NCBI GenBank assembly: GCA_019662065.1
Contig: JAIFWC010000002.1
Location: 9,298-33,297 of the forward strand
DNA from: Candidatus Saccharimonadota bacterium
GTDB taxonomy: Bacteria > Patescibacteriota > Saccharimonadia > Saccharimonadales > UBA10212
DNA: 24,000 nt
Direction: 5' to 3'
Shown: piece after piece, positions 518-11,246 of the stretch
Numbering within the stretch: position 1 is the first letter of the stretch
Layout: every line of letters begins with the position of its first letter
Program-made: the position numbers and the translations under genes
Notes under the pieces: model-generated
The model's input: only the letters and a program-made list of their open reading frames with translations
Databases searched by the model: none
Told to the model about the DNA's origin: nothing

Positions 518-594
518 TGGAGGGCCCAGTGGGATTCGAACCCACGACACGCGGCTTAAAAGGCCGCTGCTCTAACCAACTGAGCTATGGGCCC
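518..594 (-). tRNA. tRNA-Lys (anticodon UUU), CCA encoded
   Basis: The reverse complement folds as a cloverleaf: GGGCCCA-TA-GCTC-AGTTGGTTA-GAGC-A-GCGGC-CTTTTAA-GCCGC-GTGTC-GTGGG-TTCGAAT-CCCAC-TGGGCCC-T-CCA. Confidence 0.95.
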
Positions 595-788
595 CCAAAT
601 CATTGTGCCGCCTCGACACTGCTTCAGGCTTAGCCCGAACCCTATCGAGGCTCTTGGCGAACTAGCGGATTGCTCGCTTGCGGTGCGTCCTCAATGTAGT
701 TTACTACACCTCCGGGCGCTCCTCAGCGGCGCCCCGCTATTTCGCTTAAGCACAATGATTTGGAGGTCTTAGCAGAATCTGAACAACT
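595..788 (-). ncRNA. Structured ~190-nt RNA co-transcribed 5' of tRNA-Lys; candidate SRP RNA with Alu-like 5' domain (family unverified)
   Basis: A perfect 14-bp closing helix joins 595-608 to 750-763. Nested hairpins are 610-616/645-651, 657-662/672-677 (G.U on minus, A.C on plus, so minus is the sense strand), 695-699/704-708 and 714-719/729-734. The minus strand reads UAGGG-[UUCGGGC UAA GCCUGAA]-GCAG (domain-IV-like AGG...GAAGCAG) and has a loop AAUCCGCUA. It has a dedicated promoter at 795-822. The only ORF here (587-772 +) overlaps the tRNA and is implausible. Confidence 0.5.
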
Positions 789-794
789 TCTTAG

Positions 795-822
795 ATTATC
801 GGTTTTTAAGAATAAAAGTCAA
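795..822 (-). promoter_or_regulatory. Sigma70-type promoter for the structured RNA + tRNA-Lys transcript
   Basis: On the minus strand, TTGACT (817-822) is followed by a 16-nt spacer and GATAAT (795-800). Confidence 0.5.
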
Positions 823-836
823 CACTTCTAAACTGC

Positions 837-862
837 AATAAAAAACACCCGATTTGGGTGTT
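837..862 (-). terminator. Rho-independent terminator of cassette 1 (repeat module, copy 1)
   Basis: The minus strand reads ACACCC-AAAUC-GGGUGU followed by UUUUUUAUU. It is 24/26 identical to 1459-1484, and both differences fall in the loop. Confidence 0.75.
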
Positions 863-868
863 GTGATT

Positions 869-903
869 GCCCCACCCAGGTTTCCGAAGAAACCGGGTGG
901 GGC
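869..903 (-). other. GC-rich 3' UTR hairpin capped by cUUCGg tetraloop (cassette 1)
   Basis: The minus RNA is GCCCCACCCGGUUUCUUCGGAAACCUGGGUGGGGC. It folds as an 11-bp outer stem (one G.U), a 1-nt 3' bulge, 4 bp and a UUCG loop, starting 23 nt after the stop codon. Confidence 0.7.
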
Positions 904-925
904 AGATGAAGCTCGAAGTGACCTC

Positions 926-1300
926 TCAGCTGTGAAGGCTGATATTGGCCACATCGCCAGGCGTGATGACGAGTTGCTCGCCACCGCTGTTGAAGATGGT
1001 GGTCTTGTCGACGCCAGGACCCGTTTTGAGCGTGACGTTGCAGCCCATGTTCAGATGCCCGCTGGAGGTCGCTACCAGATGGGTGATGACGCCGGAGTAG
1101 TAGCTATCAATGGTGGTGACGCTGCAGTTGTCGCCGACCTGCTTGCCAGAGTTGACGACCTCCGCGCCGTTGTCGAGCGAGAAGGTGTACGCACTAGGCG
1201 AACTGTCGGCTGTAGCCGAACTAGCGGCCTTGGCGCCGCCGGCGAAGGCAGCGATGGCGCAGAGAGCGACCAGCATGACGATGATATTGCGGAGAGACAC
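926..1300 (-). CDS. Small secreted protein, high-GC codon usage (paralog A), unknown function
   Basis: The GTG start at 1300 follows SD GGAGAAAGGAG by 7 nt; the longer track ORF 926..1381 has no RBS. The signal peptide is SLRNIIVMLVALCAIAAFAGGAKA/ASS. The mature part is S/T/G/N/V-rich with 2 Cys, and third codon positions are mostly G/C. Confidence 0.7.
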   Translation of the reverse strand: MSLRNIIVMLVALCAIAAFAGGAKAASSATADSSPSAYTFSLDNGAEVVNSGKQVGDNCSVTTIDSYYSGVITHLVATSSGHLNMGCNVTLKTGPGVDKTTIFNSGGEQLVITPGDVANISLHS

Positions 1301-1374
1301 GGTGTGTCTCCTTTCTCCCCTGATGGGGATAGATGACCTCAAATTTTCAAACTTCATATCCTTAGTAAGGAGTA

Positions 1375-1428
1375 ATCCCACCTCGGATTGTTATATATTA
1401 ACATAAACACGATAAAAAAGCAACATCT
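1375..1428 (-). repeat. 54-nt promoter/leader repeat, copy 1 (upstream of paralog A)
   Basis: atcccacctcggattgttatatattaacataaacacgataaaaaagcaacatct is 52/54 identical to 1989-2042. It is AT-rich with TATATA/TATAAC -10-like boxes on the minus strand. Confidence 0.85.
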
Positions 1429-1458
1429 AAAACTAAAACTTAACCTGGAATACTTGAT

Positions 1459-1484
1459 AATAAAAAACACCCGACGTGGGTGTT
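1459..1484 (-). terminator. Rho-independent terminator of cassette 2 (repeat module, copy 2)
   Basis: aataaaaaacacccgacgtgggtgtt has the same stem and U-tract as 837-862. Confidence 0.75.
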
Positions 1485-1487
1485 ACT

Positions 1488-1524
1488 GCCGCGACTCGAA
1501 ACTCCGAAGAGTTCGAGCCGCGGC
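1488..1524 (-). other. GC-rich 3' UTR hairpin capped by cUUCGg tetraloop (cassette 2)
   Basis: The minus RNA is GCCGCGGCUCGAACUCUUCGGAGUUUCGAGUCGCGGC. It folds as a 12-bp outer stem, a 1-nt 3' bulge, 4 bp and a UUCG loop. The architecture matches 869-903 although the stem sequence differs. Confidence 0.7.
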
Positions 1525-1544
1525 CTTGAAGTGAAGATGATTCC

Positions 1545-1910
1545 CTAGCGGACCTTGATGTTGACAGCCCTGGATGCGACGAGACTGCCGTTGCACATGA
1601 GGTCGAACGTCAACTTCGAGTTCTTGTAGAGCGCCGGAGTGCTGAGCTGGCCGCCAGCCGATTGGCCAGAGGCGATAGTGCCCAGCGGGGCGTCGAAATT
1701 GAGCTCTTCGATGTGCAGGTAGCACGAGGCGTCCGAGGACGTGTTGTTCGTGACCGCGTAGTTCACTGTTGCGTTCCCGCCCGTCGAAACGAACGAGACT
1801 TGCGGCACCACACTCAGGCTGAAGCCTGACGGACTTGCAGATGCGACGGCTGAAGCCGCGAGAGCGAGTGTCAGTGAAGCGACTGCAATGACGATGAACT
1901 TGCGAAGCAT
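1545..1910 (-). CDS. Small secreted protein, high-GC codon usage (paralog B), unknown function
   Basis: The ATG at 1910 is preceded by GGGGAGGAAGTGAGG. The signal peptide is MLRKFIVIAVASLTLALAASAVASA/SPSG. There are 2 Cys and GC3 is visibly high. The track ORF 1545..2024 extends into the AT-rich leader and is not credible upstream of 1910. Confidence 0.7.
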   Translation of the reverse strand: MLRKFIVIAVASLTLALAASAVASASPSGFSLSVVPQVSFVSTGGNATVNYAVTNNTSSDASCYLHIEELNFDAPLGTIASGQSAGGQLSTPALYKNSKLTFDLMCNGSLVASRAVNIKVR

Positions 1911-1988
1911 TTCTGCCTCACTTCCTCCCCGAGGGGGAATCGTAGGTCCCTGGTTGTCAAATCTTGTACTTCTATCCTCAGCAGGAGT

Positions 1989-2042
1989 ATCCCACCTTGG
2001 ATTGTTATATATTAACATAAACACGATAAAAAAGCAATATCT
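1989..2042 (-). repeat. 54-nt promoter/leader repeat, copy 2 (upstream of paralog B)
   Basis: It is 52/54 identical to 1375-1428. Weaker homology continues through both leaders to a CCCC-N3/4-GGGG hairpin just 5' of each SD. Confidence 0.85.
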
Positions 2043-2127
2043 TTTATGGTTTTACTCCTTAAACTCAAGCAATTAACTTCTTAGCCAAGCTGTGGGATTA
2101 TTGCTTTGTCCACCGAAATTTTTCATC

Positions 2128-2391
2128 ATGCAATATGTATACGTACTAAGAAGTAAAAAAGATAAGCAGCTGTATGTTGGCTGTACCTACGATGTTAAGA
2201 AGCGTCTGTATGAGCATAATGGTAATAGAGTCCCTGCAACATCCTACAGAGGTCCATTTGAGGTAATTTACTATGAAGCATACCGAAATAAGTATGATGC
2301 TTTCTTCCGTGAAAAATGGCTAAAGACCGGTTGGGGACGACGGTACCTGAGAAAGGCGCTCCATAGTACGATGAAAAATTTAGGCGGATAA
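2128..2391 (+). CDS. GIY-YIG nuclease family protein (small, stand-alone)
   Basis: MQYVYVLRSKKDKQLYVGCTYDVKKRLYEHN carries the GIY...YIG-type motifs (YVY / YVG) plus R and E-H-N. I prefer the ATG at 2128 to the GTG at 2092. Confidence 0.8.
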   Translation: MQYVYVLRSKKDKQLYVGCTYDVKKRLYEHNGNRVPATSYRGPFEVIYYEAYRNKYDAFFREKWLKTGWGRRYLRKALHSTMKNLGG

Positions 2392-2393
2392 AA

Positions 2394-3833
2394 ATGAGGA
2401 AATTCCGCCGCACCAGTTTAATTGCCGCTCTTTGCTTATCGGCTTTAGTCGGGTTAGGGCTATCTAGAAAAATCAGTTTTACACCCAATATTTGGTACTT
2501 AGGGCTTTCGCCAGTGTTATTACTCCTTAAGCGTAAAAGCCTTTTGTCCCTGCTGGTGATTGTAGGGTTAGGCCTCGGGCTTGGTCTGTGGCGTGGTAGT
2601 TTGTACATGAATCATGTCTATCAGCTTAAGGCCCTAACAGGTCAAAAAGTTACCATTCAGGCTACGGCGACTGCCGATGCGGTTTACTCAACACGTGGGC
2701 AGATTGAATTCACGGCCAACAAGTCTCAGCTTTTGCTACCTGACAATAAACCGCTGGCTGGCAGTTTTAAAATCAGCGGCTTTGGCGTGCCGATGATTTA
2801 TCGGGGCGATAAAGTCCAGGTTTCGGGCAAGCTGTTTCCAATGCGCGGCAGTAATCAAGCCCGGATTGCCTACGCTCAGTTGCAGCGGCTGAGAGGCAAC
2901 GATGGCTTACTGTTTGGATTGACCCGCCGCTTTAACGCCGGCATGCAAAGCGCCTTACCGGAGCCTATGGCCTCATTCGGGCTAGGGCTCTTAATAGGCC
3001 AGCGGACTACCCTGCCGGCCGACATTACTGCGGCTCTGACAGCCGTTGGGCTAGTGCATATCGTGGCTGTTTCGGGCTATAACCTGACAATTATTGTCCG
3101 CGGTGTCGGCCGGCTAAAGCTGGGCTCCAAGTACCAAAAGTTGCTTATTTCGCTGGGATTGATAGCAATTTTTGTGCTAGTGACCGGCTTTAGCGCCAGC
3201 ATAGTCCGGGCGGCCATCGTATCAGTTCTTAGCCTGTGGGCTTGGTATTATGGCCGACATATCAAACCAGTCGCCCTTATTAGTTTTGCCGCAGCCGTCA
3301 CCGGACTGTGGAATCCGTTTTATATCTGGGGCGACCTGGGCTGGTATTTGTCTTTCCTAGCTTTCTTTGGCGTATTAGTGATTGCCCCGCTAATCGCTGC
3401 CCGCTTTAAGCAACAGCCCAAATTATTAACTATGGTACTGCTAGAAACCTTATCGGCCGAGGTTATGACGCTGCCGTTGATCCTGATGACTTTTAGCCAG
3501 CTATCTATTGTGGCGCTAATCGCTAATCTGTTAATTGTGCCTTTGGTGCCACTGGCGATGCTGTTAACGGCTGTAGCCGGAGCGGCCGGGGCTTTTATGC
3601 CACAAATTGCCGGCTGGTTGGCTTTGCCAGCCCGCTTGCTACTGACATACATGCTTGATCTAGTCCACGCGCTATCTAATATTCCATCAGCGTTAGTCCA
3701 TAGGGCTATCAGTCTCATATATATGTTGGCTTTCTACACAGTCGTTTTATTGGTGGTGTTAATTATGCATCATAGAAGGTCCAAAGCTAGGCCCAAAGGG
3801 CCCATCATGAACACCTTAAACATGGTAAAATAA
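2394..3833 (+). CDS. comEC: ComEC/Rec2-family DNA internalisation channel, short form without C-terminal MBL domain
   Basis: Polytopic membrane protein with an N-terminal OB-like region (DUF4131-like) and the competence-domain motif GLVHIVAVSGYNLTII. It ends about 30 aa after the last TM segment. Confidence 0.8.
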   Translation: MRKFRRTSLIAALCLSALVGLGLSRKISFTPNIWYLGLSPVLLLLKRKSLLSLLVIVGLGLGLGLWRGSLYMNHVYQLKALTGQKVTIQATATADAVYSTRGQIEFTANKSQLLLPDNKPLAGSFKISGFGVPMIYRGDKVQVSGKLFPMRGSNQARIAYAQLQRLRGNDGLLFGLTRRFNAGMQSALPEPMASFGLGLLIGQRTTLPADITAALTAVGLVHIVAVSGYNLTIIVRGVGRLKLGSKYQKLLISLGLIAIFVLVTGFSASIVRAAIVSVLSLWAWYYGRHIKPVALISFAAAVTGLWNPFYIWGDLGWYLSFLAFFGVLVIAPLIAARFKQQPKLLTMVLLETLSAEVMTLPLILMTFSQLSIVALIANLLIVPLVPLAMLLTAVAGAAGAFMPQIAGWLALPARLLLTYMLDLVHALSNIPSALVHRAISLIYMLAFYTVVLLVVLIMHHRRSKARPKGPIMNTLNMVK

Positions 3834-5210: not shown

Positions 5211-5683
5211 GGATTATTGGCATTGACCCTGGTACGGGTATTTTGGGGTTTGGGGTAATTGAGTCAGAGAGTGGCAAAAACCAGCTGGTGGATGCTGGTG
5301 TGATTCGGACTCCAGTCAAAGAGGACGATGCCGTACGATTGCAGACGATTTATGAAGAAATATCAGATATAATCGCCCAGACAAAACCTCAGGAAATGTC
5401 TATCGAAAGGCTATTTTTTGCCCAAAATGTCACTACGGCCATGACCGTGGCACAGGCCAGGGGAGTGGTACTGCTGGCCGGTATGCAGGCTGGACTGAAA
5501 ATCAGCGAATACACACCGCTGCAAATCAAACAGTCTTTGACCGGCTATGGCCGGGCCGAGAAAAAGCAGATGCAGGAGATGGTTCGAGTCCTGCTGGGGC
5601 TACCAGAGGTACCTCAGCCCGATGACTGTGCCGATGCCTTGGCGGCGGCCTTAACCCACGCTGCCACGAGTAAGGTAAAATAA
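5207..5683 (+). CDS. ruvC: Crossover junction endodeoxyribonuclease RuvC
   Basis: It has the MRIIGIDPG N-terminus and the C-terminal DDCADALAAALTH motif, and is 158 aa long. Confidence 0.92.
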   Translation: MRIIGIDPGTGILGFGVIESESGKNQLVDAGVIRTPVKEDDAVRLQTIYEEISDIIAQTKPQEMSIERLFFAQNVTTAMTVAQARGVVLLAGMQAGLKISEYTPLQIKQSLTGYGRAEKKQMQEMVRVLLGLPEVPQPDDCADALAAALTHAATSKVK

Positions 5684-10576: not shown

Positions 10577-10651
10577 CGCGGGGTGGAGCAGCGGCAGCTC
10601 GCATGGCTCATAACCATGAGGTCGCAGGTTCGAGTCCTGCCCCCGCTACCA
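10577..10651 (+). tRNA. Initiator tRNA-fMet (CAU), CCA encoded
   Basis: The 5' end CGCGGGGTGGAGCAGC is identical to the E. coli initiator. It has a C1xU72 mismatch and an A11:U24 pair. The anticodon stem has only two G-C pairs next to the loop instead of three. Confidence 0.9.
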
Positions 10652-10667
10652 AGTTGAATAACAGATT

Positions 10668-11098: not shown

Positions 11099-11158
11099 CT
11101 TGGTCATTGAGATGCAGGGCTCGGTTCTGCGACTAGCACAAGCTTCTGGCTTGGGCGT

Positions 11159-11246
11159 GGTCGCAGGTTCGGTCATCCAAGCCGGGCGCAGATGCTTGCA
11201 TCGAGCACGGCTGCAGATGTGCGCTGTCCTGCCCCCGCTACCAAGT
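11159..11246 (+). repeat. Duplicate of the 3' 35 nt of tRNA-fMet, split in the T-loop by a 54-nt GC-rich insertion
   Basis: 11159-11171 is identical to 10620-10632 (13/13) and 11226-11246 to 10634-10654 (21/21, extending 3 nt past CCA). The single A (10633) is replaced by 11172-11225. Confidence 0.85.

Follow-up and report, generated by a model that had tools for sequence, protein, structure and literature searches.

Tandem, probably self-contained expression cassettes for small proteins with predicted signal peptides at a variable site beside comEC in Saccharibacteria

Introduction

The vlp and vsp genes of Mycoplasma are tandem paralogues that share a conserved promoter, 5′ untranslated region and signal-peptide region, with mature parts that diverge. 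In Bacillus thuringiensis, the messenger RNA (mRNA) of cry genes carries a STAB-SD element as a 5′ stabiliser and a 3′ stem-loop known as a 'positive retroregulator'. The minimal mobile elements of Neisseria are variable cassettes situated between conserved flanks and exchanged by transformation. Here we describe two tandem units, A and B, on a 24-kb stretch of a contig from a Candidatus Saccharibacteria metagenome-assembled genome (the window; all coordinates are window positions), each of which encloses a GC-rich gene for a small protein with a predicted signal peptide between strongly conserved promoter and terminator modules. Related cassettes recur in other Saccharibacteria, mostly beside comEC, and are compared with the systems above. 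A search of the literature found no description of these cassettes and nothing comparable.

Two units with one layout

Unit B (2042-1459) and unit A (1428-837) both lie on the minus strand and have their parts in the same order, listed here in the direction of transcription with lengths in nucleotides (nt), base pairs (bp) and amino acid residues.

1989-2042, minus strand: promoter block of unit B, with -35 TTGCTT at 2037-2032 and -10 TAATAT at 2014-2009
1911-2004, minus strand: leader of unit B, about 94 nt, with a 5′ hairpin holding the Shine-Dalgarno (SD)-like GGUGGGA, a CCCC/GGGG hairpin at 1924-1934 and an SD/start-codon hairpin at 1902-1921
1545-1910, minus strand: coding sequence of protein B (KW801_00410), 121 residues, ATG start, with a predicted signal peptide at 1836-1910 and a mature 96-residue domain with two cysteines at 1548-1835
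1488-1524, minus strand: long 3′ hairpin of unit B, a 16-bp stem bulged by 1 nt on its 3′ side and capped by a cUUCGg loop
1459-1484, minus strand: predicted intrinsic terminator of unit B, AACACCC-ACGUC-GGGUGUU then U6
1375-1428, minus strand: promoter block of unit A, with -35 at 1423-1418 and -10 at 1400-1395
1301-1390, minus strand: leader of unit A, about 90 nt, with a 5′ hairpin, a CCCC/GGGG hairpin at 1316-1329 and an SD/start hairpin at 1293-1311
926-1300, minus strand: coding sequence of protein A (KW801_00405), 124 residues, GTG start, with a predicted signal peptide at 1226-1300 and a mature 99-residue domain with two cysteines at 929-1225
868-904, minus strand: long 3′ hairpin of unit A, 10 bp, a bulged U, 6 bp and a UUCG loop
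837-862, minus strand: predicted intrinsic terminator of unit A, AACACCC-AAAUC-GGGUGUU then U6

A repeat finder showed that the two 54-nt promoter blocks are identical at 52 of 54 positions (96%) and the two 26-nt terminator blocks at 24 of 26 (92%), both differences falling in the loop, and proteins A and B have no similarity to one another by BLASTP. The initial annotation, made from the sequence of this locus, had described two minus-strand units of common layout whose flanks are better conserved than their genes; the order of parts and the two pairs of blocks bear this out, set as they are against proteins that BLASTP does not relate. At up to three mismatches the 32-nt promoter core has exactly two copies in the 24 kb, as against 0.00 expected by chance.

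In unit B, a T-rich 17-nt spacer and a TG extension lie between the -35 and -10 hexamers, and hexamer spacing would place the start of transcription at about 2002-2006; the corresponding position in unit A would be about 1388-1392. Ten of the 12 cassettes assembled below carry TTGCTT-N17-TAATAT preceded by TGt or TGg, as in a sigma-70-type promoter with an extended -10, and the remaining two have TTGACT with TATAGT or TATAAT; the consensus over all 12 is TA-TTGCtT-TTTTAT..TGTTTATG.-TAatAT-Ata. On sequence grounds the cassette promoter is therefore predicted to be of sigma-70 type and near consensus, its TG extension accompanied by a T-rich 17-nt spacer that is conserved. Both 26-nt blocks were picked up on the minus strand by a scan for terminator-like sites, and each has the 7-bp stem with four GC pairs, followed by TTTTTTATT, of an intrinsic (Rho-independent) terminator (862-844 and 1484-1466); 837-862 and 1459-1484 are accordingly predicted terminators. 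These results support the reading of units A and B as paralogous cassettes for small signal-peptide proteins.

Recurrence in related genomes

Scanning species-representative genomes, in a contig collection that excludes the window's own genome, with the promoter core returned Saccharibacteria contigs L001/L003 and L002, with one match per genome in each of the two matching genomes. A metagenome scan returned the genuine contigs L004, L006 and L007; two further metagenome matches, L005 and L008, were rejected as chance (GC 0.24, no T-run, no cargo gene), and the viral contigs scanned gave 0 matches. Further cassettes were obtained through contigs that encode relatives of ComEC and members of the protein B family. 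Cassettes adjoin comEC on L009-L011, L018-L019, L020 and L024, and the one on L025/L026 adjoins a gene for transfer RNA (tRNA)-Arg. The resulting set of 12 consists of A and B of the window, two cassettes (first and second) on L009, and one each on L001, L002, L004, L006/7, L018, L020, L024 and L025.

All genuine module matches stand before or after a GC-rich cargo gene, with order and orientation unchanged, and the cassette-free syntenic loci (L012-L017), about 68 kb in all, contain neither the promoter nor the terminator module. The cargo falls into at least five mutually unalignable families. A chimeric assembly was rejected as the source of the arrangement, since the same layout is found within Saccharibacteria gene order in at least nine independent assemblies. 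It is likely that units A and B are tandem, self-contained, single-gene expression cassettes of a type found in soil Saccharibacteria, with products predicted to be secreted.

Leaders and 3′ ends

The CCCC-loop-GGGG hairpin that the initial annotation had placed in the leader is present in the folds of both leaders, and in L018 a single compensatory change converts it to CCAC/GUGG. RNAalifold applied to four leaders aligned with MAFFT recovered this hairpin and not the SD/start hairpin; the latter is offset in that alignment and was therefore assessed sequence by sequence. In unit A it pairs GGAGACAC with GUGUCUCC and in unit B GAGGCA with UGCUUC, and pairing of the SD with codons 2-4 is seen in A, B, L001, L004, L018 and L025. 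The region from -25 to +20 has a mean minimum free energy (MFE) of -12.6 kcal/mol in the cassettes compared with -5.4 +/- 3.6 kcal/mol in 24 host genes. AUG UCC CUU CGC is complementary to GUGAGGGGA, and the conservation of the M-S-L-R-K N-terminus is probably explained by pairing of the SD with its codons.

The SD duplexes themselves, at -11.7 kcal/mol in A and -11.2 kcal/mol in B against a host mean of -4.2 +/- 4.1 kcal/mol, rank among the strongest of the window, and the earlier remark that the SDs are far stronger than those of the core genes holds. Among 25 host gene starts in the window, many have little or no SD complementarity and several are near 0 kcal/mol. A second, SD-like GAGGUGGGA is found in 6-7 of the 12 cassettes, at a distance of about 12-25 nt from the inferred 5′ end and with no start codon after it. 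At gathering score, Rfam matched tRNAs only; at E-values up to 5, other matches within 500-2150 were well below their gathering scores.

Beyond the stop codons, the 3′ regions of A (z = -7.8) and B (z = -7.2) fold as a long GC hairpin with the terminator hairpin behind it, and this two-hairpin 3′ end, with an invariant ACACCC...GGGUGU-U6 terminator stem, is found in eight cassettes. The MFE folds of A, L018 and L020 have in common a 1-nt 3′ bulge, a 6-bp inner stem and a UUCG loop, on an outer stem that measures 10 bp except in L018, where it has 9 bp. An inner stem of 4 bp had been proposed initially; it has 5 bp and a closing C-G pair, hence 6 bp. The further proposal of one bulged geometry in both units stands for A, which folds in this way, and partly for B, in which 10 bp, bulge, 6 bp and UUCG can be drawn but the bulge position is ambiguous in the MFE fold. 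Across four cassettes, both sides have changed in 11 of 16 pairs, and 98% of cells are paired compared with 34-47% in slid controls, which argues for a selected RNA structure, as had been suggested. Uninterrupted 3′ stems of 17, 15 and 13 bp occur in L001, L024 and the second L009 cassette. The hairpins of L001 and L024 are nearly identical despite cargo of different subfamilies; the 3′ module would therefore be either more constrained than the cargo or recombined.

Cargo proteins

The N-termini of A and B each comprise 25 residues with positive charge, a hydrophobic core and a cleavage site, AKA in A and ASA in B; signal peptides were assigned by rule and from the AxA motif that is conserved across the aligned family. 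With mature parts of 99 and 96 residues and two cysteines each, both agree with the initial description of signal-peptide proteins of about 95 mature residues and two cysteines. KW801_00405 is publicly annotated as 143 residues, with a start upstream of the GTG at 1300 (1300-1381, minus strand). Comparison with B, L001 and L018, in which leader, SD and MSLR start are conserved, favours the 124-residue form.

Among 5.8 billion proteins, B matched itself and one Saccharibacteria protein of 57% identity. An exhaustive profile search with these two gave 33 hidden Markov model (HMM) matches, about 20 of which are proteins of 118-157 residues that combine a signal peptide and AxA site with an N-N-T motif and two invariant cysteines; the remainder are weak and fall on PKD/Big_9 repeats of giant proteins. 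With the B-family profile (P0003, P0124-P0154), P0003 is matched at 5.6e-53 and 11 proteins at 1e-10 or better, and B belongs to the family. Its members are 28-60% identical to the first sequence of the alignment; A23, A25, C63 and C106 vary little or not at all, and N55 is nearly invariant. The structure model of B is a seven-strand all-beta sandwich with a TM-score of about 0.7 to immunoglobulin (Ig)-like accessory domains, so that an Ig-like fold is probable for the family, and the mature cargo domain is predicted to be mostly beta-strand.

No family for A, B or the other cargo was returned by Pfam, NCBIfam, PHROGs or PADLOC. A PDB sequence profile search gave only chance matches to antibody leader sequences, and tblastn of A, B and P0137 against plasmids gave no match.

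A variable slot between tRNA-Lys and comEC

The two units occupy a site bounded on one side by a tRNA gene and on the other by comEC, with a nuclease gene in between.

518-594, minus strand: tRNA-Lys(UUU), one boundary of the slot
2394-3833, plus strand: comEC, the other boundary of the slot
2092-2391, plus strand: GIY-YIG nuclease gene, between the promoter of cassette B and comEC, GC content at third codon positions (GC3) 0.39

Where the window has two cassettes, L004, L009, L020 and L024 have one, directly upstream of comEC (the L004 contig ends before the tRNA of the slot, which is not on it). L018 has one cassette and another gene, an acetyltransferase gene occupies the slot in L014, and in L012 and L016 it is empty, with comEC within about 90 nt of tRNA-Lys(UUU). 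The cassette type is present in this one slot in genomes of only 65-84% ComEC identity. The cassettes of L001 and L025 are located elsewhere. A second slot lies between comEC and yebC (L009 6718-7320, minus strand; L002 3823-4450, plus strand) and holds cargo of a different family, of which the L009 and L002 copies are homologous (E 2e-7); the promoter of the L009 copy has diverged to TTGACT..TATAGT.

The pair is flanked by tRNA-Lys and the GIY-YIG gene, as first described, but the suggestion of a single small islet that includes the nuclease gene was not sustained. The GIY-YIG gene is missing at the corresponding position in L004, L009, L020 and L024, where the start of comEC comes directly after a conserved 'AAGCAATTAAC...' region, and it is therefore taken as a separate insertion; it looks like a free-standing insertion of homing type, distinct from the cassettes. 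Other neighbours in the window are housekeeping genes (comEC, yebC, an S51 peptidase gene, ruvCAB, dus, ftsH, tilS and pilMNO), and Pfam found no integrase, transposase or recombinase domain in the window open reading frames (ORFs) scanned.

Some further features of the region were recorded. L024 has a phage Mu Gam-like gene (643-1089) between ruvC and the S51 peptidase gene that is absent from the window. Immediately upstream of tRNA-Lys, a GC-rich segment of some 200 nt comes after a conserved promoter, TTGACTTTTA..CTAAAAACCGATAATCTAAG (window 595-830, minus strand; L024 4655-5011). The core of the segment, GAGGA.CG.CCGGAGGUGUA.UAAA.UACAUUGAGGACG.ACCGC, is conserved between the window and L024, and there is no Rfam match; the segment may be an undescribed small RNA or a tRNA leader. 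Farther away, an exact 21-nt direct repeat of the tRNA-Met 3′ end (10634-10654 and 11226-11246) encloses about 570 bp of AT-rich DNA with a small membrane-protein-like ORF; a degenerate tRNA 3′ half is located at about 11158-11246, and the arrangement looks like the remnant of an element integrated at the tRNA. Within the 3′ end of ruvC, 5581-5605 is a tRNA-3′-end-like GGTTCGAGTCCTGCTGGGGCTACCA that is 84% identical to the tRNA-Met 3′ end; ARAGORN called no tRNA at 5581-5605.

GC-rich composition of the cargo

GC3 is 0.78 in A and 0.76 in B compared with 0.39-0.58 in the 26 other ORFs of the window, which makes them the outliers that the initial annotation took them to be. Over the cassettes as a whole, cargo GC3 is 0.76-0.87 compared with 0.30-0.72 in host genes, in genomes of 41-55% GC. 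A native secreted LysM-transglycosylase in the window has a GC3 of 0.42, and secretion alone therefore does not explain the bias.

Cargo orthologues among Saccharibacteria are 45-61% identical, and GC3 is at least 0.76 in each lineage. Identity at four-fold sites between them is 0.31-0.50 where 0.34 is expected at random, that is, saturated; for comEC it is 0.34-0.55 where 0.26 is expected, so that the cargo is no better preserved. With four-fold sites saturated and GC3 still high in all lineages, the composition is maintained and is not a fading relic: on these comparisons the GC-richness of the cargo is maintained or continually renewed, and not simply the residue of a recent transfer. Selection on mRNA, GC-biased gene conversion at a recombination hot spot and turnover from a high-GC pool are candidate causes.

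Distant homologues of B exist outside Saccharibacteria-type contigs. The homologues on actinomycete-like contigs match at E-values of 3e-11 and 5e-7, and the high-GC relatives of the family are those on L021, L022 and L023. P0137 and P0131 lie on contigs of 65% and 67% GC, and their neighbours include an IS1380 transposase and an AfsR/SARP-type regulator with best matches in Pseudonocardia/Streptomyces and Nonomuraea/Streptomyces. These copies are without the Saccharibacteria promoter, leader, MSLRK-type N-terminus and terminator, and the genes (GC 0.57-0.62) are less GC-rich than their surroundings (0.67-0.79). The B family has probably been exchanged at least once with high-GC bacteria, probably Actinomycetota, in either direction.

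Alternative explanations

Dispersed repeats of the miniature inverted-repeat transposable element (MITE) or repetitive extragenic palindromic (REP) type might flank the genes by chance, and the 54-nt and 26-nt blocks are, like such repeats, short, conserved, intergenic and partly palindromic. The initial annotation had named this reading as one that would undo its own. Each block, however, has two copies in the 24-kb window and none in L012-L017, the two matching species-representative genomes have one match each, and the constant company of GC-rich cargo in one order and orientation marks the modules as specific to the cassettes. There are no terminal inverted repeats, and the transposase, integrase and recombinase domains sought with Pfam are absent from the window ORFs scanned. 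The reading is largely refuted, and we give it hardly any weight. Equally little can be given to the view that the GC-rich segments are not protein-coding, being structured RNA genes, or that the real gene is the antisense ORF at 854-1336 (plus strand). A has no homologue, and high GC by itself keeps long antisense ORFs open; yet amino acids are conserved in the B family while synonymous sites are saturated, and GC peaks at codon position 3 in the sense frame, which the antisense ORF merely mirrors (GC1 0.76, GC3 0.50). An SD, a start codon and a signal peptide are all present, and Rfam has no match.

High GC3 could also signal a recent horizontal acquisition from a high-GC organism, for example an actinobacterial host, with too little time for composition to drift. 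The gap between 0.76-0.78 and 0.39-0.58 fits this, as do the enrichment of codons ending in C as well as of those ending in G, a sign of a general GC shift and not of translational selection, and the occurrence of B relatives on contigs of 65-67% GC, beside an AfsR/SARP regulator and an IS1380 transposase whose best matches are actinomycetes. In Actinobacteria, terminators that resemble a GC hairpin without a U-tract have been reported, to which the cassette 3′ hairpin may be likened. Against it stand orthologues of 45-61% identity that are at random level in their four-fold sites and still have GC3 of at least 0.76, together with the sharing of one slot at 65-84% ComEC identity. The AT-rich promoter, leader, MSLRK-type N-terminus (MLRK in B) and terminator are of Saccharibacteria type and absent from the high-GC copies; as these copies are less GC-rich than their surroundings, the donor could equally be on the Saccharibacteria side or a third party; and A has no homologue in 5.8 billion proteins. 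Acquisition from a high-GC organism, as put forward initially, thus retains the distant B relatives on actinomycete-like contigs in its favour, but the recent, composition-derived import drawn from it is not supported as stated, with four-fold sites saturated (0.31-0.50) and GC3 nevertheless 0.76-0.87 everywhere, and we consider such an import unlikely. Codon optimisation in very highly expressed genes has less still to recommend it. A near-consensus promoter, a strong SD and two-fold codons that are 87% C-ending in the cargo would suit it, and an RRM gene, probably highly expressed, is also richer in C-ending codons. Lys, Glu and Gln codons, however, are 80% G-ending in the cargo compared with 40% in host genes, 35% and 11% in the RRM genes of the window and L012, and 39% in dnaK, of which the GC3 is an ordinary 0.53-0.59, and start regions are strongly structured, the opposite of what maximal translation would lead one to expect. 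This explanation appears very improbable.

Proposed mode of action

If units A and B and their relatives are paralogous cassettes for small signal-peptide proteins, the near-consensus promoter would give strong transcription, and the 5′ hairpin with its SD-like box and the 3′ hairpin would protect the ends of the mRNA or stabilise it. Translation would be gated by occlusion of the SD in a hairpin of about -13 to -15 kcal/mol. The product would leave the cell through Sec, with cleavage after AxA and one disulfide to stabilise it. Its site of action would be extracellular, the epibiont-host boundary being the most plausible place, and its mature domain would diverge fast or be replaced. Cargo in the slot differs between genomes, with the regulatory modules kept. 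A secreted role at the epibiont-host interface is put forward tentatively, as a possibility on the doubtful side.

Several points weigh against this account. The 12 cassettes, from at least nine independent assemblies, are a small sample, and the covariation of the 3′ hairpin comes from four sequences aligned by structure. Protein A is an orphan that matches only itself among the 5.8 billion proteins, its structure model is unusable (AlphaFold, pLDDT 48), and its coding status is suggested by frame-specific GC3, the signal peptide and the shared layout. Nor is A a member of the B family: hhalign covers residues 1-54 only, with a probability of 76%, and this alignment comprises the signal peptide and about the first 20 mature residues. 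The initial claim of a duplicated secreted-protein family hence stands for paralogous cassettes and for signal peptides assigned by rule, and not for A as a relative of B. The model of B is itself of low confidence (pLDDT 61). The promoter module is not exclusive to secreted proteins, as the same core precedes the gene for a 228-residue protein without signal peptide (L006 373-1270, L007 1-900; GC3 0.87, no family match). The high GC3 is without explanation in this account. The strength of the promoter, the stabilising of the mRNA, the gating by the SD hairpin, export and the disulfide are predictions from sequence, and a strong promoter with an occluded SD is an unusual pairing for which no hairpin-opening factor emerged. 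On L006/L007, more GC-rich ORFs lie upstream of the gene for the 228-residue protein.

A more speculative extension is that the modules serve as portable landing pads, or homology arms, by which GC-rich cargo beside comEC is swapped through natural transformation and homologous recombination, from a pool partly shared with actinobacterial hosts. Unalignable cargo behind near-identical modules at one locus (A, B, L004, L009, L018, L020, L024) fits this, and the mosaic relation of 3′ hairpins to cargo (L001/L024) and the empty slot of some relatives fit it without being proof; we rate it as improbable. If true, the landing pads would constitute a cassette-exchange system for host-interaction proteins in soil Saccharibacteria, and the persistent high GC3 would follow from frequent recombination (GC-biased gene conversion) or constant turnover from a high-GC pool.

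Little is understood of how actinobacterial hosts are recognised, bound and exploited by Saccharibacteria, and the cassettes supply concrete candidates for host interaction: a small set of fast-evolving, predicted secreted proteins that are served by dedicated, conserved expression signals and are in part shared with actinomycete-like genomes. In this work the promoter, leader and terminator modules emerged as the first expression signals of the clade with strong conservation, and they may be of use as genetic parts. It is unusual for a gene class to keep a GC3 near 0.8 where the genomes have 41-55% GC and synonymous sites have diverged to saturation.

Comparison with known systems

Small single-gene tandem units at one site, ending in a hairpin-forming segment with an extrahelical base, recall the gene cassettes of integrons. 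Unlike those, each unit has its own promoter and terminator, and the hairpins differ in sequence, with no shared attC-like core sites seen on reading; an integron gene cassette was rejected on account of these promoters and terminators and of the lack of an integrase domain, by Pfam, in the window ORFs scanned. The alternative gene content between tRNA-Lys and comEC, in a lineage with DNA-uptake machinery, resembles the minimal mobile elements of Neisseria, but here the conserved modules are short, at about 30-54 nt and 26 nt, and the likeness is one of gene content. The B profile weakly matches PKD/Big_9 Ig-like repeats in giant surface proteins, whereas B consists of one domain that stands by itself, with a signal peptide of its own and a conserved pair of cysteines, and no Pfam model reaches threshold on it.

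As in RNA thermometers of the ROSE and fourU types, the ribosome-binding site lies in a hairpin with the start codon. In contrast to these, the partner of the SD is codons 2-4 of the ORF, Rfam has no match, and the hairpins are GC-rich at -13 to -15 kcal/mol; typical RNA thermometers are less stable. With cry mRNA of B. thuringiensis the cassettes share, by sequence likeness alone, the SD-like GAGGUGGGA near the inferred 5′ end and a very stable stem-loop after the stop codon; they differ in that the true SD is occluded and a second, canonical terminator follows the hairpin.

The vlp and vsp genes of Mycoplasma likewise combine a conserved 5′ region and signal peptide with a divergent mature part, and specify exported or surface products of a reduced-genome, host-dependent bacterium. 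The cassettes differ from them in having no lipobox cysteine and no cysteine at +1 of the mature protein, no obvious internal repeats when the proteins are read (no repeat finder was run on them), and neither an invertible element nor a recombinase; across the cassettes there is one length of the T6 run and of the 17-nt spacer, with no sign of phase variation, and the cargo has an anomalous base composition and comprises several unalignable families. A phase-variable lipoprotein family of the vlp type was rejected on the missing lipobox and the constant homopolymer length. As analogies, the vlp and vsp genes, in their conserved 5′ parts and diverging mature proteins, and the stabilisers of B. 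thuringiensis cry mRNA, in the ends of the transcript, appear to come closest to the Saccharibacteria cassettes.

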